A DNA stretch of 62,772 bases, counting the filler, from Candidatus Fermentibacterota bacterium (lineage in GTDB: Bacteria > JAFGKV01): the NCBI GenBank assembly GCA_016928395.1. It is 6 parts of 5 records of this genome, joined end to end, with 100 filler letters (N's around TTAATTAATTAA, not from the genome) between each part and the next. Parts side by side here need not be neighbours in the genome. Positions count along the whole stretch, not along the records: positions 39,715 to 48,347 come from JAFGKV010000238.1; 5 more parts are not named here. One strand, 5' to 3'. The position numbers and the translations under genes are program-made. Under the pieces are notes generated by a model. That model was not told the origin of the DNA, did no database searches, and saw only the letters and a list, made by a program, of their open reading frames with translations. Within the stretch, counting starts at the first letter, position 1; every line of letters starts with the position of its first letter. Positions 27,908-54,121 of this stretch are shown one piece after another.

Positions 27908-28037
27908 GAGAGGCGATCGCGGCTCGGTCTCGTCTGGCCAGGCTCCACCCCTCTTTTACCCCCGATCCCAACCCCTCATGAAATATCCGGGTTATCGCCG
28001 CATTGGTTTCTTCCGGGCGACCTGGGGCAGCCACCCT

Positions 28038-28922
28038 CTAACGGTGATGGGTGGCTGCCGTGCTACGGGGCAGGCTCTCGGCCATCCCTGCCGGGGCGAG
28101 GAGGCAGTAGGCGGCGGTGATCGCCAGTTCCCGCACCAACGGGATGCGGCCGATAACCGGCGCCCCTAGCACGGGGGCGCCGTACCGCAAGGCAAAGGAG
28201 GGGCGCGAGAGGTACATTTTTTCCCTCGCAACGACGAATCCTGCGTCCCGGATACACCTGTGGAAGGCGTGAATCGTAAGCCGGATTTGGCGTAGGCGGC
28301 GCACTTCCTCGTGGGCGAGAGTGCTTCCCCCGGTGAGCCGATGGAACGCGGCATCCGGCAGAAGCTGGAGATAGGGGAGCCGGTTGTAGGGCACCCACAG
28401 TACCCTCTTGCGGGGCAGGATCTGCTGGTGGGCTCCGAAGGGTGAGTAGTACGGCGGAAAGATGACGAACACCAGGCCTTGCCCCGAAAGGGCATGCCGA
28501 ACCATGCCCAGAGCACGGGCCGGTTTGTCCAGGTGCTCGATGACATCTCGAAACATCACCAGGTCGAAGGGGCCGTCACGGAAGACGTCAGCATCTTCTT
28601 CAGTTACGTCGCCGACCACTACCCGGGCGTCGATACCCTCGTTCTCGTTGTGCCGTCGCGCCACCTCCACCAGCCGACGGTCTATGTCAATCATTGTGAC
28701 GCGGCACCCGGCGGCGGCAAAGGCCGCGCCGCATCCCCCGTCGCCGCATCCCACCTCAAGCACCCTCCCATTATGGAGGTCCAGGCCCCAGCGAGTTAGC
28801 AGGGGAATGAGATACTGCGTGGCCAGTTCCTTCTGGTAGCGACGGTAGAAGCTGTCCCAGTCTTCGCCGGGATCTCGCGTGACTCTGCGCCTCACCATGA
28901 CCGCCAGGCGTGAGGGAGCCAC
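28038..28922 (-). CDS. Class I SAM-dependent methyltransferase
   Basis: VLEVGCGDGG motif I, IDID, FDLVMFRDVIEHL, FPPYYSPFGAH. Start may be ATG 28898. Confidence 0.88.
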   Translation of the reverse strand: MAPSRLAVMVRRRVTRDPGEDWDSFYRRYQKELATQYLIPLLTRWGLDLHNGRVLEVGCGDGGCGAAFAAAGCRVTMIDIDRRLVEVARRHNENEGIDARVVVGDVTEEDADVFRDGPFDLVMFRDVIEHLDKPARALGMVRHALSGQGLVFVIFPPYYSPFGAHQQILPRKRVLWVPYNRLPYLQLLPDAAFHRLTGGSTLAHEEVRRLRQIRLTIHAFHRCIRDAGFVVAREKMYLSRPSFALRYGAPVLGAPVIGRIPLVRELAITAAYCLLAPAGMAESLPRSTAATHHR

Positions 28923-29180
28923 GGAGATGCATGCTGCCTCTGGGGCATTGCGTCAATACGCATCATGCGCACCCGTGAGAGGGGGGAGTTCATGGGGTTG
29001 GGGGTTCAGTCGGGTTCGGTATCGATATGGGGTTGACACGGAGGCCGCAGATTGGAGTACGATCGCGACTACAAGAGCGAGTGCGGGGGCTGGCAGAACC
29101 GTGTGCCCTCACACGAGGGTTCGGGGATAGCGCCCGGGAGGCATTGAATCGCGTTCCGGAAGGGAGGGAAGCCTCGGTAC

Positions 29181-30308
29181 TCATGCCAACAGGCGCCCCA
29201 GCCACGGCCGGCGAATAGCGATGGCGCGGGACCTACAGGCTTCGTGGCAGCAGTAACAGCGGATGCACCGAGACCGATCCACGTGGGGAACGCCATCACG
29301 AAAGGCCATCGCGTCCACGGGGCAGGCGGTTACACAGGCATGACAGCGGGTGCAACGATCCACCACCACGGTGGGCGCAGGGGAGAAGACGCCCTTGAGC
29401 AGGCGGCGCGTTGCCGCCCGGATCAGAGGATTGCGGAACACACCCATATCCAGCCGGTGGGGCGTGGCGCCCTTGAGGCCACCCGGCAGGAGTTCCTCGG
29501 GCGCGGGGCCGACGATGGTATCCGCAGCCGCGTCGAGCCATGGCAGTCTATGCAGGGGTACATTGCAGAAACGGGCGGCCACCCGGTCTACTGCCTGAAG
29601 GTCGCCTCCCACAACGATGGCGCCGACCTCGCGGGGGTCTCCGCCCGCGGGGCCCTCTCCCTCCATGGCAACCACGGCATCCACCACCGTGGCTCTGACC
29701 GGAATGGACAGCGCAAGGTCCTTGAGGGCCAGGGAGAATCGCCGCTCTTCGGCGAAGCGGGCGTGGTAGCCGACCTTGAAGTGACCCGGCACGACACCGA
29801 AGAGGTTCTTCACCGCGCAGGTGATCCCGGTATAGGAATGGGTCTTCAGCTTGGGAACATTCACGATGAAGCCGACCTGGCTCACCACGCGCACTACCTC
29901 GGCCCGGGCCAAAGTCCTACCCCCCAGGGAGCGTAGATCCCACTTTAGGTCCCAGGAGAGTTCGCAGCCTGTGCCGCGAGCCACATCGGCCATACCCGTC
30001 TCCCGGTAGACGCGCTCAAGGCCCCGCTTCGACCAGAGGAATGCGCCACTGTAGCTATCGCCGATAATGGGATGATGTCCCAGACGTTGCAGTGCTCTGA
30101 CCACGCCGCGCACTATCTCAGGATGGGTCGTCGTCGCCTCGCCCGGCGCGGCGGCGTGGAGGAGATTGGGCTTCACAAGCACCCGGCAGGATGGCCCCGC
30201 CATGGCATCCAATAATCCTGATTTTTCCAGAACCTCGCCTACCATCTCGGCAGCGTTGCCGTAGCCCGAGGAGCGGCGGATCATGATGGAGGATGGAGTC
30301 TGGTTCAT
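29181..30308 (-). CDS. DUF362 domain protein with C-terminal 2x[4Fe-4S] ferredoxin domain
   Basis: VLVKPNL, TTHPE, PKLKTH, AVKNLFG, MEGEGP; CTRCHACVTACP and CIRCYCCHEAC. Confidence 0.9.
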   Translation of the reverse strand: MNQTPSSIMIRRSSGYGNAAEMVGEVLEKSGLLDAMAGPSCRVLVKPNLLHAAAPGEATTTHPEIVRGVVRALQRLGHHPIIGDSYSGAFLWSKRGLERVYRETGMADVARGTGCELSWDLKWDLRSLGGRTLARAEVVRVVSQVGFIVNVPKLKTHSYTGITCAVKNLFGVVPGHFKVGYHARFAEERRFSLALKDLALSIPVRATVVDAVVAMEGEGPAGGDPREVGAIVVGGDLQAVDRVAARFCNVPLHRLPWLDAAADTIVGPAPEELLPGGLKGATPHRLDMGVFRNPLIRAATRRLLKGVFSPAPTVVVDRCTRCHACVTACPVDAMAFRDGVPHVDRSRCIRCYCCHEACRSRAIAIRRPWLGRLLA

Positions 30309-31477
30309 GCCGTAATACCAGCTCTGACGCGCTCAAGTCGCCTCCTGATCCTCATGGCGGCGCGGGCAGGCGGGTCATGGCGCAGGGCCTCCTCACTCCA
30401 TCGAAGCGACGCCTGAGCATCTCCGGTACGAAGGGCATGCATACCCAGTCGTTCCGCCGCCTCCCAGGCGGCAGAGAGATGACCGCGGGCGCCTTCGGCC
30501 AGCACTGCCGCCATCTCGTCGGAAGGGCCCTCGAGTCGCCACAGCGCCACAGCCGCGCGCAGCCGGGTATCGTCCACAGTCCCCTGAGCTGCGCGTCGGT
30601 ACCATCGCCGCGCTTCGGAAGGATCCACGGATTCCAGTGTGCGGCCGATGAAGAATGACAGTCTCGCGTTGCTGCCAGGGTTCTCGACGAGATCGCACAG
30701 CAGACGCAGCAGTACCAGAAGCGAGAGGGTATCCTGGCCGTTCTTCGCCAGAATGCGCGCCAGGTGGCGTCGCCTTCGCCACGGCAATCCCTCGCACTCA
30801 CGCCAGATGGGATGCCATGTCCAGGCAGGCCGAACCATTGCCATGACACGGTCCTCCACGAGGGCCAAACGGGACGAGATCCCCTGCCGCCCATACACAT
30901 CGCGGGCCAGGGGCTCCAGGTCGATGGCGCCGGTGGGAGGGACAAGACCCCCTCGTCCCAGGACCTTCGAGCGGCGATCCAGCAGAGGAAGGTCGAATCG
31001 GGATCCATTATAGGTCACCAGGTGGGATGACGTGGCCATGTGACGCTGTAGCGCCCAGAGGGCAGCTCCCTCGTCCTCCATCCCCCGCATGACGATTTGC
31101 TCGAGCCGGAGAACCTCTCCGTCATTCCATGCAAGCCCGATGACAAAGGGGATCTCTCTGCTGCCTCCTACGGTGGCCGCGGTCTCCAGGTCCAACGCGA
31201 TAAGGTGCATTACTGCGGCGTCTACTTTCCAGGCGGCGGCCAGCGGTCCCGGGATGGGCCGGGGAGGCCCCCAGGACGGGAACTCTACCTCGAACACCGG
31301 CACCGACCCGAAGGGCGTGGGCATCAGGTGTGGGAACGCCTGATCCTCCAGTCGCGTCGGATGACTCGCCACGACGGCGTTCGTGCCGAACCGGGCTTCG
31401 GTCTCCCTGATGAGGTTCTTGAGCCGCGTGATGATCTCATCGCCGGGTGGACGGGACCCGTGGGGCTGGGGACGCAT
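30305..31477 (-). CDS. YprB/MrfB-like RNase H-fold (DEDD) exonuclease with TPR-like C-terminus
   Basis: ALDLETA, PFVIGL, LVTYNGSRFDLPLL, IDL, KNGQDTLSL; helical C-terminus ending IRRRLERV. Confidence 0.75.
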   Translation of the reverse strand: MRPQPHGSRPPGDEIITRLKNLIRETEARFGTNAVVASHPTRLEDQAFPHLMPTPFGSVPVFEVEFPSWGPPRPIPGPLAAAWKVDAAVMHLIALDLETAATVGGSREIPFVIGLAWNDGEVLRLEQIVMRGMEDEGAALWALQRHMATSSHLVTYNGSRFDLPLLDRRSKVLGRGGLVPPTGAIDLEPLARDVYGRQGISSRLALVEDRVMAMVRPAWTWHPIWRECEGLPWRRRRHLARILAKNGQDTLSLLVLLRLLCDLVENPGSNARLSFFIGRTLESVDPSEARRWYRRAAQGTVDDTRLRAAVALWRLEGPSDEMAAVLAEGARGHLSAAWEAAERLGMHALRTGDAQASLRWSEEALRHDPPARAAMRIRRRLERVRAGITA

Positions 31478-31532
31478 CTGACGCTGGCGCCCCGTTATCG
31501 GCTACTGTGCGCGTGGACCTTGGCCATAGAGA

Positions 31533-32633
31533 CTACCCCACGATATCGAGGAAGCGGATCACCTGGGGTTCGCTGGGTGCCCGTTCACGGGCCTTGGCGG
31601 CGAGGCGCGCGGCCTCGGTCCGATCGCCGTGCCAGCGTTCCAGCTTCGCCAGCGCGAGGAACGGCCGGTAGTCGGAGTCAAAACGGCGGCAGGCCAGGTG
31701 CAAGGTCAATCTGGCCTGCGCAATCTTCCGGAGGTTCTGTTCGGCTTGGGCTCGCATGAGCAACCACTCAAGCGGGCACCATGCCGCTTCAGTAGCCTTG
31801 CTGAGAAACGGCAAGGCGAGGGTATCACGCCCTCCCCGGTGATGGAATCTGCCGGCCTCGAACAGGGCTAGGCTGTCGGTCGGACATAGTCTGATGGCTT
31901 TGTCGAACGCCATGGCTGCAGCAACGGTGTCGCCCGCAGCCTCCTGAGACCACCCCAAGGCAACGCGCGCCGCGCAGGACGCCGGGGCCAAGGCAACCGC
32001 CTGTGTCGCGGCGTGGAGGGAGCCATTGATGTTGCCGCACTGGAGGCGAAGAGAGGCCAGTGCCCGCCACAGCTCAGCATCATCTGCGAAAAGCCGAATG
32101 GAACGGGCAAACAGGCTGTCGGCCAGCGTCTCTTCCTCCAGGGCCCGAGCGGTCCATGCCAGCGACCGAACAGTCGCCGGCGCGGGACCGGGCAGCATGG
32201 CGGCCCCGCGAAGCGCAACCCGGGCGGAATCCATCGATCCGAGATCCAGGAAGGCCCCCGCCAGTTCGGCCAGCACGTCCGGGCTGTGGCCCCGGCTCTC
32301 GCATGAGGAAAGGACACGCACTGCCTCGGCCGGATCACCAAGTTCCCGGTACAGCTGCGCGATGCGGTGTCCTGCCCGGCGACCGCACGGAAGGCTCTCC
32401 GCCGTTGTAAGCCATCGACGGGCATCGGTCGCGCGGCCGAACCGAATGGCTTCGGATGCCGCACGCACCATGTCATAACACTCGCCATCGTCCGACCCCT
32501 GGCGACTCAGGGGGTCACGGCCGGAGAGATCCAGGTCTGAACGGGTGAGCATCACCACCGCGCCGGCGAATGCAAGAGAGAGGCTCACCAACGCTGCCAC
32601 GGCGCCCACCAGATGGCGGCGATTATCGCCCAT
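31533..32633 (-). CDS. Tetratricopeptide-repeat protein with N-terminal membrane anchor
   Basis: TM LVGAVAALVSLSLAFAGAVVML; multiple TPR units (AVALAP, AIRLCP, ARERAP). Start uncertain. Confidence 0.75.
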   Translation of the reverse strand: MGDNRRHLVGAVAALVSLSLAFAGAVVMLTRSDLDLSGRDPLSRQGSDDGECYDMVRAASEAIRFGRATDARRWLTTAESLPCGRRAGHRIAQLYRELGDPAEAVRVLSSCESRGHSPDVLAELAGAFLDLGSMDSARVALRGAAMLPGPAPATVRSLAWTARALEEETLADSLFARSIRLFADDAELWRALASLRLQCGNINGSLHAATQAVALAPASCAARVALGWSQEAAGDTVAAAMAFDKAIRLCPTDSLALFEAGRFHHRGGRDTLALPFLSKATEAAWCPLEWLLMRAQAEQNLRKIAQARLTLHLACRRFDSDYRPFLALAKLERWHGDRTEAARLAAKARERAPSEPQVIRFLDIVG

Positions 32634-32888
32634 ACTGACGCTCCACGACACGCCTCTCCTTCGGGTTGGGCCGACGAGCTCTCGTGAACCGTAGCTCACT
32701 CCGCACGACCGCGCCTCTGGTTTCCGCTCCTCCTCCAGAATATATCCGGTGGACACGCGTGCGTCGTCTCAGCGATCGGACTTCGCGGTTCGCTCGAGCG
32801 GGGTATGCCTCGCGTCGATGACAATCGCTCAACCTAGGTTCTTGTGAGCCCAGGAAAAACCGGCTACATTCAGGGGGAATAACCCCGC

Positions 32889-33599
32889 ATGAGCACAGGA
32901 GGATCCTTGTACGCGCTTGTTGCAGAAAACATATCCCGGTCATTTGTCACGGGTCAGGGGCGACTGGAGGTTCTCTCCGGCGTCCATATGTCTGTACAGC
33001 GTGGATCAGTGGCGAGTGTAGTGGGCGCCTCCGGTTCCGGCAAGAGTACTCTGCTGCAGATCTTGGGAGGGCTGGATCGACCGGATGGCGGCCGTGTGAT
33101 CGTGAATGGTGAGGAGGTACACGCGCTCAGCGAGCCGGCCCGGGCCGCCTTCCGGGCCCGGACCATCGGGTTTGTCTTCCAGTTTCATCATCTGCTTCCT
33201 GACTTCAATGCCTTGGAGAATGTCATGATACCCGCCCTCATCGTGGGAGCGCCCCGGCGACACGCTGAGGAGCGCGCCAGAGCCCTTCTGGCTGCGGTGG
33301 GGCTCGAAGAGCGATGGAGCCATCGGCCGGCCCATCTCTCGGGTGGAGAGCAGCAACGGGTGGCAGTGGCGCGAGCGCTCATGAACGAACCGCGCTTGGT
33401 CCTGGCCGATGAGCCGTCAGGCAATCTTGATCCGAAGACCGCGACTGTTCTGGAGGATCTGCTGTGGGGTCTAGTGGGTACCACAGAAGCGAGTATGATA
33501 GTGGTCACCCACGACGAGGGCCTTGCGCGACGAGCAGATATGTGCCTGAGACTGGCCGGGGGAAAGCTGGAGGAGGTGCCCCATGGATCACCCCTGTGA
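32889..33599 (+). CDS. lolD: Lipoprotein-releasing system ABC ATPase (LolD-like)
   Basis: [58 protein letters not shown]. Confidence 0.85.
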
Positions 33600-34110
33600 T
33601 GCCTGCGGGAATCGGCCGGCAGAGATACGGGTCACAGAGGTGGCCAGGGGCCGGGTTGAGGAGCGAATGCTCTGTCGTGCGTGCGCAGCGAAACTGGGGG
33701 TTGACAGCGGGTCGCACGCAGTCTTCAGCGTGTCGAAGCTCGTTGCGGGGATGGGAGACCAGGCTGCGCCGAACGGCTTGGAGCGCGTGGATGCGGTCTC
33801 CTGCCAATCCTGTGGTCTCAGGTATGCGGAGTTCCGGGATAGTGGCAAGTTGGGATGTCCTGAGTGCTACCGTGCATTCAGCAAGGACCTGGCGGTGCTC
33901 ATTCGCAGGCTGCACGGTGCGCTCCGTCATTCAGGGCGTGGCCCCGGTGAGCGGAGCGCCGAGCAGGCGATCCGCCTGGAGCTGGCCTCCCTGCGGAATC
34001 AACTGGCGGAGGCTGTCGCAAAGGAAGCGTACGAAGGGGCGGCCCGACTTCGAGATCGGATTCGAGAACTCAAGACGCCCGGCACGGACAGCGAGGAAGA
34101 GATCCCGTGA
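33583..34110 (+). CDS. mcsA: McsA (CxxC motifs plus UVR domain)
   Basis: [41 protein letters not shown] motif; precedes mcsB. Confidence 0.92.
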
Positions 34111-35162
34111 TGTCGTTTGATGACATGGTTCAGGAGGCCAGTACGTGGCTCTGTCTCGATGGGCCGCAGTCAGACCGGGTCGTGTCCTCGAGGGCCCGCC
34201 TGGCCCGGAACATCTCGGCCCATCATTTCGCGCACAGAGCATCCAGCGAGAGCATGACCCGCATGACCCTCTCCATGGAAGGCGTGATGCAGCAGTTGCC
34301 CGGCCTGCAGCCCTGCTCTTTCCTCCGCCTTGCCGACATCAGCCCGCTGGATCGGGAGATCCTGGCGGAGCGTCACATGATCAGCCATTTTCCTCAAAGC
34401 GACACCGTGTCCAAGGCAGTAGCCTTCAGAGCAGACGAACGGGCCACTGTTCTGCTCAATGAAGAGGATCATCTCCGGATCTCAGGATTCGCTCCGGGGT
34501 TCGATCTCTGGGACGCGCTTCGCATGGCCAAGGAGGTGGAGTCGGAACTGGAATACTATGCCGATTTCGCATACTTGGAACAATGGGGGTATCTTACGGC
34601 GTGTCCCACCAATGTGGGGACCGGCCTCCGGGCATCGCTTCTTGTTCATCTTCCCGGGTTGGTGTTGACCCGCGAAGTGGGAAAGATGGTGAATGGGCTT
34701 TCTCAAATCGGTCTTGCCGTGCGGGGATTCAGAGGTGAAGGCAGTGAGGTGGTGGGGAATCTCTTCCAGGTATCCAATCAGGTCACCCTGGGGAAATCGG
34801 AGGAAGAGATAGTCGAGATGGTGTGCCAAGTAACGGCACAGGTCTTGCACTATGAAAACCAGGCTCGCGAAGTCTTAATGAGAGACGCGCGGTCTCAGGT
34901 CGAGGACAAAGTCTGGCGGGCGCTGGGCCTGCTGCGAACTGCTCGACTTCTGACTTCCGTCGAGGCGTTGGGCCTCGCCAGTGCCGTGCGACTGGGGACT
35001 GATCTGGGCATCCTTCAGGGCATCGCTGTGTCGGCCCTCAATGAGATGATTCAGCTTGCCCAGCCGGCCCACGTGCAGCGACGCGAAGGAGACGATGTGT
35101 CGTCGGAGGAGCGCGACGCCAGACGAGCAACCTGGGTCCGACGTCGGCTCATGATGGAGTAA
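34107..35162 (+). CDS. mcsB: Protein-arginine kinase McsB
   Basis: [51 protein letters not shown]. Confidence 0.95.
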
Positions 35163-35182
35163 TGCTGGATGAGGGAAGACCC

Positions 35183-37650
<2,468 letters not shown>

Positions 37651-37651
<1 letters not shown>

Positions 37652-39614
37652 TGCGCCGCATCGCGCTTGTGTGTCTTGTGGCTGTTGTGGCCAATGCCGA
37701 GCAGATCACCACTGACATCAGGGTACAGGGAGCGGCAACGTTGGACTCTTCATTCGTCCTCAGAACGGCGGGACTGCGTTCAGACGTACTCCATACCAGC
37801 ATGGATCTTGCCGACGCAGTGCGGCGGCTCTATCGCGCAGGCCTGGTGGACGATGTGCAGGTCTACAGCCGGCCTGCCGTCGGCGGAAGAGAGCTGACGC
37901 TTGCCATACGCGAGCGCCCACCCCTCGCGAGCGTTGAGTTCACAGGCAACAAGCGGATTTCGACCGACGACCTTCAGAAGAAGGTTCCCCTCATCAAGGG
38001 TCAGCGGGTGAGCCAGGCGCGCATCGAGAACTATGCAGCCCTCATTCGGCGAACCTACCGAGAAGAGGGCTATCTGAAGGCTCGGGTGGAGACCCAGATC
38101 GACTCCCTGGCTGCAGGCACAGCTGTTGTCTACCGCATAGAAGAAGGCCCCAAGGTGATCGTCCGCCAGATCCGCATTGAGGGCGCCGAGGCCATCGAAG
38201 CCAAGGCTGTCGCCAAGAGGATGAAGCTGAAGCCCAAGGGGTTCCTTCGCGGCGGCAAGTTCGACAGGGCGAAACTCGAGGAGAGCTTCGAGTCGATTGA
38301 GGCTTTCTATCGCGAGCGGGGATATCTGGACGCGGCGGTAGTCGATCACCGTGTGGAGTATCACGCCGACAGCAGTAGCGTAACGGTGGCCCTGGAGGTG
38401 GACGAGGGCCGCATGTTTCGGGTCGGATCGTTTGCTCTCACCTTTGACGACAGTCTCAGCTACTCCGAGGAGAGCCTTCTTGGCTTCATCAAGCTCAATC
38501 CCGGCGACCCTTTTAACTACGCACGGCTGGAGAAGGGCGTGCGCTCGATGTATGAACGATTCCAGGAGGACGGGTATCTCTGGGCTCGTGTCATTCCTGA
38601 TGAGCGGCGAACCGGCGATGTGGTAGACTATACCTTTGCCATACACCAGGGCCCACCCGCCATGGTGCGGCTCATTCGGATCGAAGGCAACACGACGACC
38701 AAAGAGAAGGTGATCCGGCGGGAGTTGCTCATCTACCCCGGCGATAGATTTCGTCGAAGCGCTTTGGTGAGGAGCCACCGGGAAGTGTACAATCTGGGCT
38801 TCTTCGAGGATGTCGCAGTGGACTTCGACAACCCCTCGACCGAGGGCGATGTCGATTTCGTCGTGAAGGTCAAGGAGAAGTCATCGGGGCAGTTCAACTT
38901 CGGCGTAACCTACTCCAGCCAGACCCGGCTCATGGGGTTTATTCAGCTCTCCCACCCCAATGTCTTGGGGAACGGATGGATCTCCAATTTGAGGTGGGAG
39001 TTCGGCAAGGCCAACCGCAACATAGAATTCGGCTTCACGGAGCCCTGGCTGCTTGGGACGCCAACCAGAGCGGGGTTTGATCTCTATAATACCGAGAGTA
39101 ACTACTATTATGCAGACTACTCAGTGGAACGACGGGGTGGTGGCATCAACGTGGGCCGACCATTGCCGTGGGTTGACTATGTCAGTGCCTCGTTCGCGTA
39201 CAGTCTCTCCGATGTTCGCGTCTCCCCCGACGATGACTATACGGGATCTGATCTCCCGGAGGGATGGCAGACGACGAGCCGAACCACGTATCGGGTCGTC
39301 CGGGACAGCAGGGACAACTTCCTCGAGCCGACGCGGGGATCGCGAAGCATTCTGACCATGGAGCTGGCCGGTCGGGTTTTCGGCGGCGATGTGGCCTATC
39401 GAAAACACGAGGTGCAGACCTCCTGGTTCACTCCGCTGGCGAGCAAACTCATCGCTTCGGTGAGTTTGAAGGCAGGCTCCGTGGTGGGATACCCGGGGAG
39501 GAGTGACGTGCCGGTGTACGAGCAATTCAGGCCAGGGGGCACGAGCACCGATGGAACCGTACGAGGATACGAGGACTACTCTCTGGGCCCGGTGGATGCC
39601 ACTGGCTACTACTC
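37651..39614 (+). CDS. bamA: Outer membrane protein assembly factor BamA; 3'-truncated
   Basis: Signal peptide, POTRA repeats (GNKRI, YREEGY, GNTTTKEKVIRREL, LGFFEDV), FTEPWL, RDSRDN, VRGY. Confidence 0.93.
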
Positions 39615-39714
39615 NNNNNNNNNNNNNNNNNNNNNNNNNNNNNNNNNNNNNNNNNNNNTTAATTAATTAANNNNNNNNNNNNNNNNNNNNNNNNNNNNNN
39701 NNNNNNNNNNNNNN
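39615..39714. other. Artificial contig spacer
   Basis: N-run with TTAATTAATTAA core. Confidence 0.99.
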
Positions 39715-39716
39715 CT

Positions 39717-41897
39717 TTCATGCAGGCGTTCAATACGGTTTTCCAACAGGGAGGGCCCATCATTGTCTCCAGCAGCAAGCCGCTGGCCTCCATGGAGCCT
39801 CTGTCGATGCGCGTCAGGGCCGCTCTGGGCATCTGTCGGCCTTTGACGCTGGTCGCGCCCAAGCAGGAAACCATCGTCACCATCGCATTCCGGGTGGCAG
39901 AGAAGGCCGGCGTGGAGTCCAAGGGAGTAAACTGGGGCGTTTTGGTGCAGGAAGCTGGCGGAGATCTCCGGCGAGTGCTTGAGGCGATTGGCGGCGGCAG
40001 ATCCGTTCGCGGTGCAGGCCGTGTCGCCGAGACTACGGTTACTGCTTTCGAGCCACGAGTCAGCCCCTCGGAAGAGTCCGGCGCCGCCCGAACAGCCGCG
40101 CTCTTACGCGAGGAGGCGGAAGCAATCATCAGCGAGGCAAGAACCGCCATCGATGAGATCGAGCAACGGCCTGGAGCTATCGACTCCGAGCTCCTGGATC
40201 GCGCCAAGGATGCTTTGGCGCAGGCGATTCGCGCGCGGGATTCCGGCGACTTCGATGCAAGTGAGCAACTAGGAATGGAGGCGCTGGAGAAGGCGGCGCT
40301 TGCCCACAGTCGGTCGGAGGGGACGATGGTCGCGAAGAGTCCGCCCGAGGCTGCGGCCACACCGAAGCAATCACAGCCGGTGCTGGCGCCCTACACCGAG
40401 CCGGAGGGTACTGATGAGCACGTGAAGGCATCGCTTCGGGAGGCTGAGAAGGCGATCCGAGATGCATGTGATGCCGGGGCTGAGGAATACGCTTCTCGCG
40501 AGCTGCGGATGGCCGTCAACGGGCTCGAGGAAGCGCGGCGGATAGCGGCGGATCCCGCGTTGCGTGCGCGGGCCGTTGACGAGGCCCGGCTGGCGGCGGA
40601 GCAGGCGTGGGATGCCGGACGAAGAGCCAAGACCAGAAAGGAAGAGGCTCGGATCAAGCAGGAGAAAGACAAGGTCCGCCGTTGTCAGATGGCAATTGAG
40701 GAGGTACGGAAAGAGCACGAGCGTCTTGCAGTGCATGAAGGTGATACACCCATCGTCGCCCAGCTTGAGGAAGTTGGGGTTTTTATCGACACGGCCGCGC
40801 AGTACCAGGAAGTCGGAAGCATAGGTCAGGCGCTGGAGCATGTGATGAAGGCCCGGAAGCGCCTCAACGAGATCTCAGATGAAGCGCGGCTTCGTCGTGA
40901 ACTTCGCGACATCATAAACGAAGTGGACGGTCTCGTCGGTGAGGCAGACAAGCGTGGCGAGACGCAGAGTCCTCAGCAACTGGTCGACATCCAGAACGCC
41001 TTGGCAGAAGCAGAGCGAGTGCTCATGGGTGACAGCGCCGACTATGAGCTGGGACTAAACTGGGCACGAGTCGCCCGACAGAAGGCCTTGAGACTGGCCG
41101 AAGGGGGCACCGATCGTCGATCGAAGGACGTCGGCAAGTCCAAGCGGCAGGATGGACCTGAGCTCACTTTCGATAGTCTCGAAGTGTGCGAGGGCAACCA
41201 GTTTGTCATCGCCATGGCCAGGACCGCAGCTGAGACACCTCACCTCGTCAAGAGCCCCCTCTACGTTTTTGGCGACGTCGGGGTGGGGAAGACCCACCTC
41301 TTATCTGCGATTCAAGATCTGGCCAAGAAGACGCATCCTGACAACTCCGTTGTTCTCACGACTGCAGCGGATTTCTCCGAAGACTACCGTGAGGCCCTTG
41401 CCCTGGGCAAGGCATCGTCCTTCAGGGAGGCCTACCGTGCCTCGGATCTGTTCATCCTCGATGACCTGCACCACATCGTAGCGAATCCCGATGGGATTCG
41501 CGAGTTCTTCCATACGTTGAGCGCCATCGAGGCATCAGGCGGTTTGGCCGTGGTATCGGCCGCCGTTCCCCCGCGGAAGCTGGGGATTGATGACAAGAGC
41601 TTTCGGTCGCGTCTCGAGGGTGGTGTGACAGCAGAGATGAAGTACCCCTCTCTGGAGGCGCGCGAACGCATACTCCGCCACGCGGCGAAGCGCTACGATT
41701 TGAAGATTCCTGATGAGGCCATTACTCTTCTGGCTACCATGATCACCAGCAATGTGCGGGAACTCCTCGGCGCGTTGGGCAAGGTCGCCGCGCATTCCCG
41801 CGCCGAGGGCGGCCAGGTCACTGGTGAGATCATGAGAAGGGTTCTTCAAGAGGTGCTTCCGGGGCCCAGTGAGGACGAAAAGTGGCTTCACTCATAG
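39717..41897 (+). CDS. Protein with two DnaA-type AAA+ modules (N-terminal degenerate, C-terminal near-intact) separated by DUF4398-like helical repeats; 5'-truncated
   Basis: N-terminal FMQAFNTVF...IIVSSSKP...GGDLRRVLEAI aligns to the second half of DnaA domain III; AEKAIRDACDAGAEEYASRELRMA repeat; C-terminal LTFDSLEV, PLYVFGDVGVGKTHLL, FILDD, RSRLEGG, SNVRELLGAL; ends without domain IV. Confidence 0.85.
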   Translation, partial: FMQAFNTVFQQGGPIIVSSSKPLASMEPLSMRVRAALGICRPLTLVAPKQETIVTIAFRVAEKAGVESKGVNWGVLVQEAGGDLRRVLEAIGGGRSVRGAGRVAETTVTAFEPRVSPSEESGAARTAALLREEAEAIISEARTAIDEIEQRPGAIDSELLDRAKDALAQAIRARDSGDFDASEQLGMEALEKAALAHSRSEGTMVAKSPPEAAATPKQSQPVLAPYTEPEGTDEHVKASLREAEKAIRDACDAGAEEYASRELRMAVNGLEEARRIAADPALRARAVDEARLAAEQAWDAGRRAKTRKEEARIKQEKDKVRRCQMAIEEVRKEHERLAVHEGDTPIVAQLEEVGVFIDTAAQYQEVGSIGQALEHVMKARKRLNEISDEARLRRELRDIINEVDGLVGEADKRGETQSPQQLVDIQNALAEAERVLMGDSADYELGLNWARVARQKALRLAEGGTDRRSKDVGKSKRQDGPELTFDSLEVCEGNQFVIAMARTAAETPHLVKSPLYVFGDVGVGKTHLLSAIQDLAKKTHPDNSVVLTTAADFSEDYREALALGKASSFREAYRASDLFILDDLHHIVANPDGIREFFHTLSAIEASGGLAVVSAAVPPRKLGIDDKSFRSRLEGGVTAEMKYPSLEARERILRHAAKRYDLKIPDEAITLLATMITSNVRELLGALGKVAAHSRAEGGQVTGEIMRRVLQEVLPGPSEDEKWLHS

Positions 41898-43150
41898 AAC
41901 TGCTCGTATCTCGACAGATGATCTCTTCCGAGCAGGCTCGTGAAGCGGCGGCTCTATCAGAAGAGACTGGGGCTTTCATAGGGCGAATCCTCGTTTCTCA
42001 GGGAGCAGTGGAGGAGCAAATGCTGGCTCGTTTTCTCGAGCGGGAATGCACCGAGAAGCCGGGGGCTCTGCACATCGAGGCAGACGCTCAGTTGATGCAG
42101 TTGCTCCCCGAGAGGCTCATGCGCACCTACCGCATGGTCCCCTTGGGAAGATCTCCCTCCGGCGTCCTGAAGCTCGCAGTATCGGAGCCGCTATCCATAG
42201 GCGGCATAGACCAGGTGAAGCGCCGGCTGGGAATGCCCGTCAGGCTGATTCTGGTGGATTCTGATACCATCGAGACGCTGCTGGGTGTGCCCGTGCAGTC
42301 CGTGGCGGTCCAGCCCCCGCTACCTCCAGAGCCTACCTCCGCATCGGTGAGCCTGGCTCCCTCGCGTCCTATTCACACTCCGTCTACCTCTGCTGCGTCC
42401 GCGGAGGGTTCTCTTGCACAGGATCAGGGCGCAGTGTTGCGGCCTCGAATGGTGCGCCAGCGGGTTGATGCTCCTGAGGACTGGCAGCCCGATCCCGTGC
42501 CGGGCGAGCTTCCTTCGGTCCTGGAGGAAGCCTTCAATGCGCTTCAGTCCGTCGTGGAAAGCAGCCAGCACGTGTTCTTAGTGGTCACTGGTCCGGATTC
42601 TGCGAGGGACCTAGTACTCAGGAAGCTGCGCACGGTCACATGGGGAGACCACGAGGCATTCTATCTGGATCTGATCGCCCATCATTTTCCTGCTGAGGTT
42701 GATCATCAGCGCAGAGTTCCTACCATACTGGACGGAGTTGACGTGGCCGGGATCGATGAGGAAGAGGAGCGGCGCCTTCTCCGTACCATCAGCGCAGCGT
42801 ATGCTGCCAAGACACCGCTGGTGCTTGGAATGAGGAAGAGCCCTAAGGAGTCCCAGAATTTGAGTGGAGGCCTGCGACTCACGCTTGGCCTGGCCAAGAT
42901 GGTGCCCATCGAGGTAGAGGAGACCGCGGAGAGATCCGCGTCTCCACCTGATTTTGAACAGCTATTCCTGGCCTTGGCCGATGAGACTGCGGCTTGGAGT
43001 GAGGCGGCATTTGCCGGGGCGAGTCTTCGTCCTCTGCTCCAGGCCGCTTCTCGAGCGTATACGAGGGGAAGCCGACAGGAGGCTCTCGGCAAGGCAGCAA
43101 CGGCCGTGGCCAGCCGCGTTTCTCATCTCACCGAGGAGCGGCTTGGCTGA
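41882..43150 (+). CDS. PilB/GspE N-terminal (MshEN/T2SSE_N) domain fused to a heavily degenerate DnaA-like AAA+ module
   Basis: LIELLVSRQMISSEQ...FIGRILVSQGAV, LLPERLMRTYRMVPL, LKLAVSEP; later FLVVTGPDSARDLVL (lost P-loop), TILDGVD, LLRTISAAYAAKTPLVLGMRKSPKESQNL. Confidence 0.7.
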   Translation: MASLIELLVSRQMISSEQAREAAALSEETGAFIGRILVSQGAVEEQMLARFLERECTEKPGALHIEADAQLMQLLPERLMRTYRMVPLGRSPSGVLKLAVSEPLSIGGIDQVKRRLGMPVRLILVDSDTIETLLGVPVQSVAVQPPLPPEPTSASVSLAPSRPIHTPSTSAASAEGSLAQDQGAVLRPRMVRQRVDAPEDWQPDPVPGELPSVLEEAFNALQSVVESSQHVFLVVTGPDSARDLVLRKLRTVTWGDHEAFYLDLIAHHFPAEVDHQRRVPTILDGVDVAGIDEEEERRLLRTISAAYAAKTPLVLGMRKSPKESQNLSGGLRLTLGLAKMVPIEVEETAERSASPPDFEQLFLALADETAAWSEAAFAGASLRPLLQAASRAYTRGSRQEALGKAATAVASRVSHLTEERLG

Positions 43151-44421
43151 TGCCAAGGCGGCGGAATACTCGTGCCGGGCTTGGAAGACGTTTCGGCCGA
43201 ACCCTGGTTCGATGGGGAGCAGTCACCGAAGCTCAGTTGAAGGAGGCCCTGACTCATCAGCACGAGCGCGGGGGTCTCATAGGCAGATGGCTTGTCGAAA
43301 CAGGTGCAGTGTCCCCAGGAAGAATGAGAGACCTCCTCGATCGGTTTCATCGGCGGCGGCATCTGTCGGTGGCTAATCTCCGCATCGACCGCGAAGTGCT
43401 GCGGGTTCTCACGAAAGATCTTGCGTGGGCATGGTGCGCACTACCGTTGGATATCTCAGATGGCGATCTCGTTGTCGCTGTCCCTGATGCTTCTGAGACC
43501 GAATGCGTCGCCACTCTCGCCGACGCAACCGGCATGACGATCCAGCCGGTCTCGTGTCCTGAAGACGAAATTGCTGAGGCCATCCGACGTCACTACGGAT
43601 CTCAGGGCGTGATCCCCGACGAGTGGTTGTTTGGATCGGCTCCTCTCTCGAAGTTTCGCTTCGAGACCTACGTGGTCGGCGAGGCGAATCGACGTGTGTA
43701 TGAGGCAGCCATGGCTGTTGCGGTGGCACCCGGGGTGCGACATAATCCGCTTTTCGTGTATGGGGAAGTAGGGCATGGCAAGACGCATCTTCTGAATGCC
43801 ATCGGCAATCGGATCAGAGAGGAGCGTCCCTCAAGCATAGTACTCTATCTCCCAGCAGTTCGTTTCGCTGATGAGCTCCTTCGTGCAATAGAGCATAACA
43901 GACTCGTGGAATTCCGGACGGTATACGCGCGTACGACGGTGCTTCTACTGGATGATGTGCAGTTCCTGGCCGATCAACGGGCCGTCCAAGAGGAGTTCGC
44001 GAACCTCTTCGAAGTGCTGCAGGCGAGGGGACGGCAGATCGTTATCACCAGTGATCGTGCTCCCGAGGAAGTACAGACCTTGGCGGATCGAGTTAAATCG
44101 GGACTTGGCGCTGGGCTCATTGTCGGCGTGGAAGTCCCCAGCATCGCGATGAAGGCTGCGATTCTCATGGAGAAGCGGCGTGAGCATAAGTGGGCCTTGC
44201 CCGATAATGTCATTACCCGCGTCGCGCACGAGTTTGACGGGGATGTGAGACGGCTAGAGGGGATACTCCGAACTGTATGCGCACGGATTGAACTTGACAG
44301 CGGCAGGCCGATGGACGAAATATTATCTTCTGTTCTTACAACTGTGCATTCAGATACAGGCGTCGCGGAACCGTGGGAGTCCGCCCCCGAGTTGCGGGCT
44401 CGAACACATCCAAACCGATAG
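43150..44421 (+). CDS. MshEN/T2SSE_N domain fused to DnaA-type AAA+ domain III
   Basis: RFGRTLVRWGAVTEAQLKEALTHQ / LIGRWLVETGAV; FRFETYVVGEAN, HNPLFVYGEVGHGKTHLL, LLLDD, ITSDR, GDVRRLEG; no domain IV. Confidence 0.88.
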   Translation: MPRRRNTRAGLGRRFGRTLVRWGAVTEAQLKEALTHQHERGGLIGRWLVETGAVSPGRMRDLLDRFHRRRHLSVANLRIDREVLRVLTKDLAWAWCALPLDISDGDLVVAVPDASETECVATLADATGMTIQPVSCPEDEIAEAIRRHYGSQGVIPDEWLFGSAPLSKFRFETYVVGEANRRVYEAAMAVAVAPGVRHNPLFVYGEVGHGKTHLLNAIGNRIREERPSSIVLYLPAVRFADELLRAIEHNRLVEFRTVYARTTVLLLDDVQFLADQRAVQEEFANLFEVLQARGRQIVITSDRAPEEVQTLADRVKSGLGAGLIVGVEVPSIAMKAAILMEKRREHKWALPDNVITRVAHEFDGDVRRLEGILRTVCARIELDSGRPMDEILSSVLTTVHSDTGVAEPWESAPELRARTHPNR

Positions 44422-47400
44422 GTGAGCACGATGGCGAAGCAGCAGCAACAGCGGCTCGGCGACCTACTCGTCGAACATAAGGTTATCACCAAGAAACAGC
44501 TGAAGCAGGCGCATGAGGAGCAGTCGCGTGACACTGAGGGTCGCCGATTGGGGAGAATCCTGATTGACCTTAACTTTATTGGTGAAGAGACTCTTATCAG
44601 TTTTCTTGCACGGCAGTGCGGAATGCCTCACCTACGTTTGGGTGATTACGAGATAGACAGTGAGGTAATAAAGTACGTATCTCCTGAACTTGTAACAAAG
44701 TATCAGGCTGTACCCATCGACAAACTTGGGAAAATACTCACTGTTGCCATGGTTGACCCTTTGGACGATGAGGCGCTTGACGGCCTGCAGAAGGCCACTG
44801 GCTTCGTGGTCAAGCCTATCGTGTGTTCAGAAAAGGACATCGAGGACGCAATTGATCGGTACTATGGTGCGGGAGTGCTTGAGGCCAGTAAGGAAAGCCG
44901 CAGGCGGGCGGTCGCTGAAGCGTCGGGTCGGCCCACGGCAGAGCAGGAACCGGTGGCAATCGAGGAGAGTCTGGATGGCCTCCGGCCTCTGAAGCCATAT
45001 ACCTTCGACGAGTTCGTCGTCGGTCACGCGAACCAGTTCACCTACGCGACGGCCAAGGCCGTTGCTGAGGCTCCCGCACAGGACTACAACCCTCTGTTCA
45101 TCTACAGCGGCGTTGGTCTCGGAAAGACCCACTTGGTCAATGCAATAGGCAACCACATCCTTGCCCGTGACCCAGGATCCCGCGTCATCTATCTCTCTTC
45201 GGAGCGATTCACTGCTGAACTAGTCAGTGCGATTCAGAGGAATGATATCAAGAGTTTTCGGCGACGCTACCGTGAAGTGGATGTTCTGCTTCTTGATGAC
45301 ATTCACTTTCTGGCGGGCAAGGAGCGTGCTCAGGAGGAGTTCTTCCACACGTTCAACGAACTCTACAATGCACACAAGCAAATCGTCACGACCAGTGATC
45401 GGCCACCCAAAAGCATGCTTACTTTGGAGAAGCGCCTTCGGAGTAGGTTCGAGGGCGGGATTATCACCGATATCCAGCCGCCCGAGTATGAAACGAGATT
45501 GGCGATACTCCACAAGAAGATGGAGCGGATGGGACAAAGTGTGGATCAGCCGGTGCTTGAGCTTCTGGCTGAGCGCATCACATCCAATATCCGAGAGCTG
45601 GAGGGCGCATTACGAGGGGTGATCGCGTCTGCAGAGGCTGCTGGCGAGTCTATTACCCGGCGTTACGCCGAGCGGGTCTTGGATGAGATTCTTGGCGAGA
45701 CAGAGGCTGCGTCCAGGCAGCGCGAAGTGGAAGAGGAAGTTGCTGAAATCATCACGAAGGCCAAGGCGCGGCTCCAGGATGTGGTTGATGCCGGGGTCGA
45801 AGCCGAACTGCCCGAGGGTGTTGAGAACGTTCGCTCTCAGCTTGAGGTGGCCAATCAGGCGCTACGAAGTGGTGATCTGAATGCGGCCCGGAGCGCCGCG
45901 ATGGAGGCACGGGAGCGAGCGGTGGCATTATTGCGGGAGCAAGAGGAAGGCCGGAAAGTCCGGGCGCGTGAACGGATCGAATCTGGGCTGAGGGAGAAGG
46001 TAGGCACTCTGCAGCAGCTAATCGATCAGGCCGCACAGGTCGGAGTCGGGGAAGAGGTTGTCCAGGGTTTCTCCTCGTCCCTCTTGAACTTCGAGGGAGA
46101 AATGGCCCGCGGCGGAGATCCTGTACCGCTGGAGGCTGAGGTTGGCAGACTCTTGAAACAGGTCGCGAAGGCAATCGAGGAGGCGAGTATGAGCTCCCGT
46201 GCCGCTGAAGATTCTCGCTCTTTGGACTGGGAAATCACCGGTGTGCAAGCCGAGATGGATCGTTTGGCAGCGGCTACCCAGGGTCGCCTTGGGGCGCAAG
46301 CTTCGGAGGCGGAGCGTCTCCTTCGGGAAGCTATCGGTCTGGTCCGGGCAGGAAAGCACACACAAGCCCGTGCTCTGGTGAAGCAGGCCAAGGAGATCGC
46401 GACTGCGCTCAAGGCTGCGGGTATCGAAGATGCAGAGGAGCCGCAGAAGCTTGATGCCGATCAGGCCGTGAAGAGCGCGGCGACTGCCATCGAGCGAGCG
46501 AAGGCGGAGGGTGCAGCGCAGCTTGCGGCCCAACCTCTTGAAGAGGCGGAGGATCTGGTCATCAACGCCGAGGCGATGCTTGAAGCTGAGGAGTTCGATG
46601 AAGCGCTCGCCTATGCTTTGCGGGCTGAGGAGGCAGCACTGCGGGCGTCGGCGTCGGCCATCGAGCAAAGAACAGCCATCAAGCGCCAGGAGACTGAGCA
46701 GAACCTCGCCAAGGCGGCGGAACTGGTGGCATTGGCGACCGAGAGCGGCGCCGAAGAGTACTCCCGTGAGGACCTCGACGCCATTACTGCCAGCCAGGTC
46801 GAGGCCAAAGCTGCTGTGGAGCAGGACCGGGTCATCGAGGCTTTCGACCTTAGTCAGTCTCTGCTCCGAGCTTCTCAGAAGCTGCTCAACGACACCAAGG
46901 CGCGAAAGACCGAATCCCTCCGAAAAGCCCTTGCCGATCGCCTTTCCCGTGCTGAAGAAACGATCGAGCGCGCCCGTGGCCGGGGCGCGGCAAAGTACTG
47001 CCCAAGTGATCTTGGTGACGTGGAGAAGCTCCTGGGAGACGGAAAGAAGCTTCTGAAAGCCGGTCAGTTTGAGAAGGGGCTGGAGGTCTCAGAGGAGATT
47101 CCTGCTCGTGTCGATGCCTTGGCGCAGAAGACAGAACAAGCGCGGGACGCGGAAGAGTCGCTTCGCAAGCGGAGCAAGGAGACACTTCGGGAGGCAGAGT
47201 CGATCCTGCAGGGGGCTCTTGCTGCGGGTGCACTTCGCTATGTACTGAAGACCTTCCAGGACGCGCAGGTTGCCCTTGCCCGGGCGGTTGAGCTTGTTGA
47301 GGGTGAGGATCCACAGAAAGCGTTCCAGGAGAGCCAGACGGTACTGTCACAAGCCCGGCGTGTGATCGAGTCTATCGAGGAGAAGAAACTCGAGGTCAAG

Positions 47401-48347
47401 CGGCAGGAACTCCAAACCGTCATCGAGGGCGCGAAGGCGAATCTAGAGAATGCCGTGAAGGAAGGGGCCGAGAAGTACGTACCCTCTCTGTTGGAGGAGG
47501 CTCGGAACTCTCTGGCTCTGCTTCAGACTGCATACGATGAAGCCAAGTATGACGATGGCCTTGCACTCAAGGGACAGCTTGTGGAACTGGTGCGACAGAC
47601 GCGTCAGGAATCCGAGCAGAGGCGTCTCCGGGAGGAGAGGACTAGGAATCGCTGCCAGCAGTTGCTGGGTACAGCCAAGGATCTCGTGTCTCAGTCGGAA
47701 GCCTTGGAGGCATCGCGGTACGCGGGTGCCCAGTTGAAGCAGGTGAGAGGGCAGATCGAGGACGTAACTCATCATCTCGATGAGGATAAGGTAGAGGAGG
47801 CGGAAACACTCGCTCAGGCAACGCTTTCCATGGCTGAGAATCTCTTGGCTGCCACGCAGGAGGAACGCGGCGCCGAGATGAAGCGCACACTCCAGGGCTA
47901 TGTCGAGACTCTCTCCGAGATGCTCAGCCTTACTCTGGAAACAGGCGGCCGTCGATACGCACCCGAGAAGGTGCAGCGCGCGGAGGCTCAACTGGGAGAG
48001 ATTCGGCAGAGCCTCGAATCTGGTGAGTATGAAGCTGGCCTCGAGGGAGCGGAGCCTCTGGAGGCTCTGCTGGTGCAGCTCCAGGACGAGACTGAGACCA
48101 AGCGGAAGGAAGAAGAGGAGCTGCGTCGAACAACCCGAGCGGCGCTGGACCGTTCCGAGGAACTTCTCGGTGAGGCCATAGCTATCGGTGCTGAGGAGTT
48201 CGCCGAGGAGTCTCTCAAGAACGTTCAGGCTCTCTTTAGCAGGGCTTCCGATGTCGGTCGAGGTGATGACACTCGGCGGGCCTTTGAGCTGTCACAGGGG
48301 GTTGTTGAACGGGCTGCCAAGTTGGTCGAGGAAGCGAGAGTACGGAA
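44422..48347 (+). CDS. MshEN/T2SSE_N domain + intact DnaA-type AAA+ domain III + long array of DUF4398-like helical repeats; 3'-truncated
   Basis: [17 protein letters not shown] / [93 protein letters not shown]; then about 9 repeats of A..I..A...GA..Y....L. Confidence 0.9.
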
Positions 48348-48447
48348 NNNNNNNNNNNNNNNNNNNNNNNNNNNNNNNNNNNNNNNNNNNNTTAATTAAT
48401 TAANNNNNNNNNNNNNNNNNNNNNNNNNNNNNNNNNNNNNNNNNNNN
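48348..48447. other. Artificial contig spacer
   Basis: N-run with TTAATTAATTAA core. Confidence 0.99.
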
Positions 48448-54021: not shown

Positions 54022-54121
54022 NNNNNNNNNNNNNNNNNNNNNNNNNNNNNNNNNNNNNNNNNNNNTTAATTAATTAANNNNNNNNNNNNNNNNNNNNNNN
54101 NNNNNNNNNNNNNNNNNNNNN
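54022..54121. other. Artificial contig spacer
   Basis: N-run with TTAATTAATTAA core. Confidence 0.99.

Follow-up and report, generated by a model that had tools for sequence, protein, structure and literature searches.

Largely conserved, module-specific loss of catalytic motifs in four DnaA-type AAA+ paralogs from a type IV pilus motor cluster of Candidatus Fermentibacterota

Why would a bacterium carry six copies of the AAA+ module of the replication initiator DnaA in an operon of type IV pilus motor genes, and why would some of these copies be kept although their catalytic motifs are gone? This question was raised by four consecutive genes, gene 1 to gene 4 (g1 to g4), in a 62,772-nucleotide (nt) stretch of DNA, hereafter the window, from a Candidatus Fermentibacterota bacterium (GenBank assembly GCA_016928395.1). 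Each gene encodes an N-terminal MshEN domain, a domain type otherwise found in pilus motor ATPases such as PilB and MshE, followed by one or two DnaA-type modules. Comparison with orthologs revealed that the loss of catalytic motifs differs from module to module and that each pattern of loss is largely conserved. As judged from the sequences, we consider it possible, with a rough probability of 0.4, that the four proteins form one asymmetric hetero-oligomer.

The source genome (G000) is a metagenome-assembled genome of 343 contigs and 4.79 Mb that is 94% complete. The four genes lie at the end of contig C299, the final 8633 bases of which (C299:75708-84340) occupy positions 39715-48347 of the window. 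The features of this locus are as follows.

39715..41897, plus strand: gene 1 (g1), codons 257-983 only; the full gene is C299:74939-77890 and starts 769 nt before this piece of the stretch.
39720..40043, plus strand: C-terminal half (sensor I to lid) of g1N, the first DnaA-type module of g1; its Walker A and B motifs lie outside the stretch.
40104..41132, plus strand: helical-repeat spacer of g1, 4 repeats of about 80 amino acids (aa), with a Pfam DUF4398 match.
41124..41891, plus strand: g1C, the second DnaA-type AAA+ module of g1 (Pfam PF00308).
41882..43150, plus strand: gene 2 (g2), 422 aa, with MshEN at 42074-42283 and a predicted pseudo-AAA+ module at about 42494-43147.
43150..44421, plus strand: gene 3 (g3), 423 aa, with MshEN at 43360-43608 and a DnaA-type AAA+ module at 43618-44382 (PF00308).
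44422..48347, plus strand: gene 4 (g4), the 5' 1308 codons, with MshEN at 44620-44871, the N-terminal module g4N at 44962-45726 and helical repeats at 45793-48342.

The reading frames are tightly packed: g1 and g2 overlap by 16 nt, g2 and g3 share the sequence TGATG, in which the g3 start overlaps the g2 stop, and g3 and g4 abut. The 5' end of g1 is truncated because of an artificial join at 39615-39714, and the ATG at 39720 is codon 259 of a 983-codon gene rather than its start. The full g1 product of 983 aa contains, in order, MshEN, g1N, four helical repeats and g1C. The full g1N module has the Walker A motif GPGCVGKT and the Walker B motif LILDD; the first-pass annotation, made on the joined stretch, had called this module catalytically dead, which was an artefact of the join, although the sensor-I Asp and the finger Arg are indeed missing. 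At the other end, the 3' end of g4 was lost because contig C299 ends at 48347. Complete g4 orthologs (n = 3) are 1987-2013 aa long and carry a second, C-terminal DnaA module (g4C) after 14 repeats; therefore, the set comprises six modules in four proteins, and not five modules as first described. When the g4 protein of G002, which represents the only other genus of the family in the collection, was searched against the G000 genome with tblastn, its C-terminal third (residues 1306-1993) had no ortholog-level match, while the N-terminal part matched with 63% identity.

The Pfam profile PF00308 matched g4N, g3, g1C and g1N with 232.4, 171.6, 105.6 and 42.7 bits (E 2e-10 for g1N, a weak match), respectively, when stretches were scored in the search of the own genome; the whole-protein scores were 227.4 for g4, 168.7 for g3, 106.4 for the g1 fragment in the window and 142.3 for full g1 (two stretches). 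The g4C module was also matched. In g2, no PF00308 match was found, and its C-terminal half had no match to any Pfam family. Thus, g1, g3 and g4 show MshEN followed by PF00308 without DnaA domain IV, and g2 shows MshEN followed by a degenerate module.

We compared the catalytic motifs across five syntenic operons and 5 to 16 distinct orthologs per gene, with three complete g4C modules. All counts refer to distinct sequences, after removal of six exact duplicates or contained proteins (P0010, P0018, P0019, P0020, P0022 and P0138). Residue roles were placed by aligning the modules with the DnaA of this genome and g4N also with that of B. subtilis. A review of DnaA (PMC5742627) describes Arg285 as the finger that touches the ATP of the neighbour in head-to-tail oligomers and is required for intrinsic ATPase activity; in the same review, Arg281 in box VII stabilises oligomers, Arg334 (sensor 2) has a role in hydrolysis and Asp269 (sensor 1) has a role in nucleotide affinity.

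Every motif string previously quoted for genes 1 to 4 was present in the sequence, including the absence of GKT from gene 2. The g4N module of this genome reads GVGLGKT (Walker A), LLLDD (Walker B), TSD (sensor I), RLRSRF (box VII) and NIRELEG (sensor II), and, as had been proposed, it is complete: Walker A, Walker B, the sensor-I Asp, the first box VII Arg, the finger Arg and the sensor-II Arg were all found in 5/5 orthologs. The g4C module kept Walker A, Walker B, the sensor-I Asp and the sensor-II Arg in 3/3 orthologs, and its box VII varied in two of the three, with the first Arg replaced by Met in metagenome contig L050 and the finger replaced by Lys in L053. In g3, Walker A, Walker B, the sensor-I Asp (TSDR) and the first box VII Arg were found in 16/16 orthologs and the sensor-II Arg in 15/15 (the short contig L054 ends before this position); the finger position was Gly in eight, Asp in four, Ser in one and Arg in three of the 16, and it is Gly in this genome (DRVKSGL).

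The remaining three modules have lost more. All nine g1C sequences kept Walker A, the Walker B DD, the finger Arg and the sensor-II Arg, none kept the sensor-I Asp (VSAAVPP in this genome), and the first box VII Arg was Ser in 9/9; the earlier description of a module that lost sensor I and retained its finger therefore held throughout. In g1N (n = 10), GK[TS], the first box VII Arg and the sensor-II Arg were kept in 10/10, Walker B was DD in 5/10 and DG in 5/10, and both the sensor-I Asp and the finger Arg were found in 0/10, the latter position being Ala in five and Ser in five. The g2 module has lost its ATP site, again as first described: GK[ST] was found in 0/13 sequences (one of which is a fragment beginning inside the P-loop), G[PS]DxxRD stands where the P-loop was, all 13 have D-G for Walker B, the sensor-I Asp is absent, and both box VII Arg residues including the finger are absent in 13/13, with Arg (six), Lys (three), Glu (two), Gly (one) and Gln (one) at the sensor-II position. 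In g1N and g2, which are the most degenerate, 8 and 14 alignment columns, respectively, are also deleted between Walker A and Walker B, the place to which PMC5742627 assigns the initiator-specific helices.

The view that the losses are fixed among orthologs was thus borne out for g2, g1C, the finger and sensor I of g1N, and g4N, and it failed for the g3 finger, the g1N Walker B and the g4C finger. Whole-protein identity between lineages was 42-54% for g2, 50-66% for g1, 55-76% for g3 and 62-76% for g4. Because the same states recur in orthologs of only 42-76% identity, the motif pattern is above chance.

To place the g2 module, sequence and model comparisons were combined. An hhalign comparison of g2 with the other DnaA modules gave only E 0.0076 and a probability of 5%, although the segment from Walker B to box VII was in the expected register. 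This match is too weak alone, and the AAA+ nature of g2 therefore rests on an AlphaFold2 model and on Foldseek. The model, built from four orthologs, had a mean predicted local distance difference test score (pLDDT) of 69, with about 80 over residues 200-340, and showed the strand-helix order of the AAA+ core together with a helical lid. Foldseek matched its C-terminal half to DnaA (2hcb, 8btg, 1l8q), Hda (3sc3, 5x06) and clamp-loader chains with E values of 1.7e-4 to 1e-3, with RFC and ORC chains also among the fold matches, and its N-terminal half to PilF GSPII-B and MshE. A profile of the g2 module found 8 clusters among 1.84 billion representatives, all of them strong matches and all from this clade. 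As many as 36 columns were invariant in nine g2 sequences, including the former P-loop, Walker B, the box VII positions and part of the lid. As modelled, then, the g2 module is a clade-restricted, highly diverged AAA+ relic that is kept under constraint.

A maximum-likelihood tree was calculated from 34 modules. These were the operon modules of four lineages (six types), the DnaA of the genome itself, six paralogs fused to a REC domain and four solo MshEN-DnaA paralogs. Each module type formed its own clade containing all four lineages (supports 96-100); therefore, the six-fold split is older than the divergence of the lineages. The g3 modules were sister to the solo MshEN-DnaA paralogs (99/96), and this pair was sister to the REC-fused paralogs (98/98). 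The g1N and g2 modules formed a group (97/99), for which the program warned of long branches. The g4N branches were very short, and the G000 and G002 copies were 85% identical.

The gene order was conserved together with the motifs. The order g1-g2-g3-g4 recurs in 5/5 loci that are long enough, namely G000, G002 and the metagenome contigs L050, L052 and L053; the short contigs L051 and L054 carry g3-g4 and g2-g3, respectively, and G001 has a g1 fragment at a contig end. The full operon order in this rare uncultured lineage is pilD-g1-g2-g3-g4-(tonB-like)-pilB-x-pilT-pilC-pilS-pilT/U-pilR. In G000, the prepilin peptidase gene pilD lies directly upstream of gene 1. The G002 cluster contains, in order, genes for a beta-helix protein, a 226-aa open reading frame (ORF), pilD, g1-g4, a TonB_C protein, pilB, a 330-aa ORF, pilT, pilC, pilS, pilT/U and pilR, and PilB-like ORFs follow g4 in L050 and L053. 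The phylum is represented by only three genomes in the collection (G000, G001, which is 82% complete, and G002); a metagenome scan with the g3 alignment yielded 8 loci, and a scan with the g2 alignment gave 396 pattern matches, 0 of which were confirmed.

The N-terminal MshEN domains differ in how well they match the cyclic-di-GMP motif, which Wang et al. 2016 (PMC5013675) give as two copies of RLGxx(L/V/I)(L/V/I)xxG(L/V/I)(L/V/I)xxxxLxxxLxxQ with a 5-residue spacer. The NCBIfam motif model NF053729 (cut-off 38 bits) scored 67.0 for g4, 46.8 for g3 and 38.5 for g2, and g1 had no match. By eye, g4 has RLG and Gln in both half-sites, with the central Gly replaced by Lys/Arg and Asn and a spacer of 7 residues; g3 keeps RLG...Q in one half-site, the first; in g1 and g2, the Arg and Gln contacts are absent, and neither half-site has RLG...Q. 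The model scores and the inspection by eye show the same gradation, and g4 has the best predicted cyclic-di-GMP motif of the four proteins.

The helical repeats of about 80 residues, counted with an iterated profile, number 14 in 3/3 complete g4 orthologs, at least 10 in the truncated G000 g4 and 4 in g1 (both orthologs examined). An AlphaFold2 model of three g4 repeats (pLDDT 90) revealed two helices per repeat, a first of about 20 and a second of about 50 residues. A fold search with this model found no PDB match at E<=0.001, the best being the N-domain of Borrelia BB0323 (E 0.17). The conserved repeat number suggests that length matters.

How could these parts work together? Clamp loaders and ORC-Cdc6 are AAA+ hetero-oligomers in which active, nucleotide-binding-only, finger-donating-only and dead subunits occur together. 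The products of g1 to g4 would assemble, probably co-translationally and with fixed stoichiometry, into one ATP-dependent asymmetric machine through head-to-tail contacts of the DnaA type, and the MshEN domains would dock this assembly to the base of the type IV pilus machine on the cytoplasmic side. The g4 protein, which combines the best cyclic-di-GMP motif with two complete ATPase modules, would be the signal-sensing, hydrolysing core; g3 would provide a hydrolysable site that needs a finger from another module; g1C would act mainly as a finger donor that may bind ATP, as judged from its motifs, without sensor I; and g1N and g2 would be structural. With only three modules bearing a finger, ATP-bridged growth would be self-limiting, and the helical rods would set fixed distances. 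Several observations argue for the assembly: the strict co-occurrence of g1 to g4 in a fixed order, their overlapping frames, the constraint on the dead g2 module, the g1C finger that is always kept though the site of g1C itself is without sensor I, and the equal numbers of fingers and complete ATP sites, three each. The largely conserved motif states, the six-fold split that is older than the lineages and the graded cyclic-di-GMP motif also count in its favour.

An enumeration of rings was used to examine this arrangement. Among the 120 directed orders of six modules, 4 pair all three fingers with the three complete ATP sites, and 2 of these 4 also keep the module pairs of g1 and g4 adjacent; both read g1-g4-g3-g2 and are collinear with the gene order. 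The enumeration shows that the model is self-consistent; it is a prediction and no evidence that the assembly exists. A more specific form can be drawn from it, which we regard as improbable in its full detail: a 1:1:1:1 hetero-hexamer of six initiator-clade modules, which would sit on the type IV pilus motor and be a bacterial equivalent of ORC-Cdc6 without a role in replication. Its modules would be ordered g1N > g1C > g4N/g4C > g3 > g2 and back to g1N, such that the order of proteins in the ring equals the gene order. Three contiguous interfaces would be catalytic, the fingers of g1C, g4N and g4C serving the sites of g4N, g4C and g3, and the other three would be permanently inert. The two rods, of 4 and 14 repeats, would project as fixed-length arms, and the three active sites would be gated by cyclic di-GMP binding to the MshEN domain of g4.

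Several results weigh against the hetero-oligomer. No physical or predicted interface between the g1 to g4 proteins was obtained: a complex prediction for the g3 AAA+ module (residues 160-423) with the g2 pseudo-module (residues 196-422), run without controls, gave a score of 0.00 and a mark of 0.32, which speaks neither for nor against binding. The g4C module of G000 itself is absent from the genome assembly, and the comparison data come from a single narrow clade in which many sequences are close kin, such that the counts are not independent. The motif pattern also has exceptions, in that the g3 finger is Arg in 3/16 orthologs (one lineage), the g1N Walker B is evenly split between DD and DG, and the g4C finger is Lys in 1/3. 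In addition, the finger Arg is missing from 5/6 REC-fused stand-alone paralogs of this genome (Gly, Ser, Leu, Gly and Val at this position), and the solo MshEN-DnaA paralogs of the genome and its relatives have Gln there. Because these stand-alone fingerless paralogs keep their ATP-site motifs, a fingerless DnaA-type module evidently works without operon partners. The proposal that g3 is a terminal cap is weak for similar reasons: its finger position is unconstrained, g1N and g2 are fingerless as well, and finger loss is usual in stand-alone paralogs.

These stand-alone paralogs belong to a wider family. PF00308 matched 14 places in G000, four in the operon (g1N, g1C, g3 and g4N) and ten elsewhere. 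The eight strongest non-operon matches in the Pfam search were one true DnaA, six REC fusions (406-620 aa) and one solo MshEN fusion (409 aa), and two weak matches lie on the short contigs C100 and C234. In total, the genome encodes one true DnaA and at least 11 other proteins with DnaA-type modules (six REC-fused and five MshEN-fused). The REC-DnaA fusions are on contigs C20, C218, C78, C150, C126 and C311 (loci L004-L008 and L010) and are without domain IV. Walker A, Walker B, sensor I and the sensor-II Arg are intact in each of the seven paralogs outside the operon. As a separate point, capping of DnaA-type oligomers in response to phosphorylation is a conceivable role for the REC-fused fingerless modules, whose ATP sites are intact. 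The solo MshEN-DnaA paralog is found at C108:1402-2631 in G000 (L058) and on contig C7 in G001 (L043:7601-8932, minus strand). In both genomes, it lies between a type IX secretion system-tailed secreted protein and an OPT oligopeptide transporter and outside any pilus cluster; on C108, genes for a REC-GGDEF cyclase and a histidine kinase are found at a distance of about 5 kb.

In another explanation, each of the four proteins docks by its own MshEN domain and serves the pilus machine as a nucleotide-switch adaptor separate from the others, and the differing decay after tandem duplication reflects sub-functionalisation. We consider this doubtful but still the most serious alternative. It is favoured by the fingerless REC-fused and solo MshEN proteins that stand alone with intact ATP sites, by the sister relationship of g3 to solo paralogs that lie outside pilus clusters, and by the drift of the g3 finger position among Gly, Asp, Ser and Arg. 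However, independent adaptors would not explain why the four genes strictly co-occur in a fixed order in all five loci with overlapping frames, why a g2 module without P-loop and finger is kept under constraint, or why the g1C finger persists in 9/9 sequences while sensor I is lost, as a finger is useless in a monomer.

The history of the g3 finger was followed further in a g3 tree rooted with the solo paralogs, which requires three or more changes at this position. The lineage with Arg, comprising L051, L052 and L053, is nested next to G002, which has Gly (support 92); several independent losses are therefore a less parsimonious account than Arg having been regained from Gly. Separately, L053 (g3 at 9435-10688, g4 at 10688-16648), the only member of the Arg lineage with a complete g4, combines an Arg finger in g3 with a Lys at the g4C finger; this is a single observation. 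The reverse, a Gly in g3 and an Arg in g4C, was found in G002 and L050. Such opposite states may point to a constant count of three Arg fingers.

The two-module proteins g1 and g4 could instead be intramolecular clasps, in which the finger of the C-terminal module engages the ATP of the N-terminal module in the same chain or in a second copy, such that ATP closes the helical rod into a loop or a dimer, with g2 and g3 as accessories. ATP-gated head engagement in SMC and Rad50 proteins offers an analogy. Both proteins do pair a finger-bearing C-terminal module with an ATP-binding N-terminal one, and their repeats are conserved in number and modelled as a confident helical array. We nevertheless regard clasps as quite unlikely, since nothing shows that the rod folds back, the three-repeat model gives helix pairs and not a long antiparallel coiled coil, and the conserved g2 and g3 are left unexplained. 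Finally, it is highly improbable that the proteins are signal-controlled replication regulators that engage the true DnaA, as fingerless filament cappers or through g4N, and tie initiation to cyclic-di-GMP or pilus status: g4N is 51% identical to the genome's own DnaA versus 44% at most to the other operon modules, its branches are very short and it matches B. subtilis DnaA domain III with E 4e-82 over 238 residues, but the operon proteins have neither domain IV nor DnaA domain I, a separate complete DnaA is encoded on another contig, and the operon sits inside a pilus motor cluster with a PilB-type N-domain on each protein.

Whichever arrangement is correct, the g1 to g4 proteins are not DnaA, Hda or PilB. 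They resemble DnaA domain III (PDB 8btg, 8bv3, 2z4r, 1l8q and 2hcb) in their PF00308 modules, which show the same Walker A and B, sensor I, box VII and sensor II strings, and they differ from DnaA in the N-terminal MshEN domain, the lack of domain I, the presence of up to two modules per chain and the location in a pilus cluster. The helix-turn-helix of domain IV (PF08299) was found in none of g1 to g4 or their G002 orthologs, while it is present in the own DnaA, a 470-aa protein on contig C126 that scored 464.4 bits against TIGR00362 over profile positions 21-437. Against the same model (cut-off 343.9 bits), g1 and g3 were below the cut-off with 243.4 and 244.9 bits, and the 612.7 bits of the G002 g4 are a sum over two modules, the best stretch covering only profile positions 105-352 of 437. 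Hda, a short protein with one module, acts with the sliding clamp on DnaA. The operon proteins share with it a DnaA-type AAA+ module without domain IV, but their MshEN domains and pilus context set them apart, and they scored below threshold against the Hda model TIGR03420 (79-176 bits versus a cut-off of 194.8). The MshEN domain of PilB, MshE and PilF (PF05157; PDB 5htl, 8pdk and 6olj) is present in all four proteins, and the g4 N-terminus matched PilB chains with E 1e-29; however, the T2SSE ATPase domain (PF00437), which the true PilB and PilT encoded downstream in G002 do contain, had no match in g1 to g4. The likeness to clamp loaders and ORC-Cdc6 lies in a set of paralogous AAA+ modules of which some are active, some bind or donate a finger only and some are dead. 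In contrast to the present case, those assemblies are experimentally established and act on DNA or clamps; here, the assembly is deduced from genes, no DNA-binding domain is present, and two subunits have two modules. In the literature listings, we found no publication on fusions of MshEN or REC with DnaA-type AAA+ modules, and nothing relevant on DnaA-like pilus ATPases. New here is the form with four paralogs and six modules, with a pseudo-ATPase, long rods of fixed length and conserved degeneracy.

Upstream of pilD in G000 (L011:115-8633, corresponding to C299:64455-72973) are genes for a 1877-aa protein with a match to SprA_N (type IX secretion), a 968-aa beta-helix protein and a 224-aa ORF without a family, the latter two also being found upstream in G002. 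A defence-system reading of the locus was rejected, as PADLOC gave only weak mads_8/TRIP13-type AAA matches (best E 6e-6) and no defence system. The window as a whole is composed of contigs C295, C298, both ends of C299, C301 and C302, and its artificial joins are as follows.

22647-22746, 27808-27907, 39615-39714, 48348-48447 and 54022-54121: artificial joins, N44-TTAATTAATTAA-N44, non-genomic; synteny and genes across them are artificial.
39615..39714, no strand: the join between C299:1-11707 and C299:75708-84340, not genomic sequence.

Positions 27908-39614 are the initial 11707 bases of the 84-kb contig C299, and about 64 kb are omitted before 39715. Positions 35162-39614 hold the gene for an 829-aa double AAA+ chaperone of ClpC type, with Clp_N and UVR motifs, and after it one for a BamA-like POTRA/Omp85 protein that is truncated at its 3' end by the join at 39615-39714. 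These two were rejected as neighbours of the DnaA-like genes, since both lie at the opposite end of C299, 64 kb away. Assembly breaks were seen within helical-repeat regions, after repeat 10 of gene 4 in G000 (48347) and after residue 693 of gene 1 in G001 (C183, L059), and in short-read metagenome-assembled genomes of this lineage, the C-terminal modules will tend to be missed.

In this lineage, DnaA-type modules, which are textbook replication parts, have been copied six-fold into a pilus-motor operon without DNA-box binding and fused to a pilus-motor docking and cyclic-di-GMP domain. These paralogs matter for annotation because the database names of the protein matches read 'chromosomal replication initiator protein DnaA' or 'DnaA/Hda family protein'. 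If the four proteins do not assemble, the lineage still uses DnaA-type modules as general signalling ATPases. If they do, type IV pili would have a regulator or accessory that has so far escaped study, and the set would offer a compact natural case of a homo-oligomeric AAA+ switch evolving into a hetero-oligomer that is asymmetric because its positions are active, finger-only or dead.

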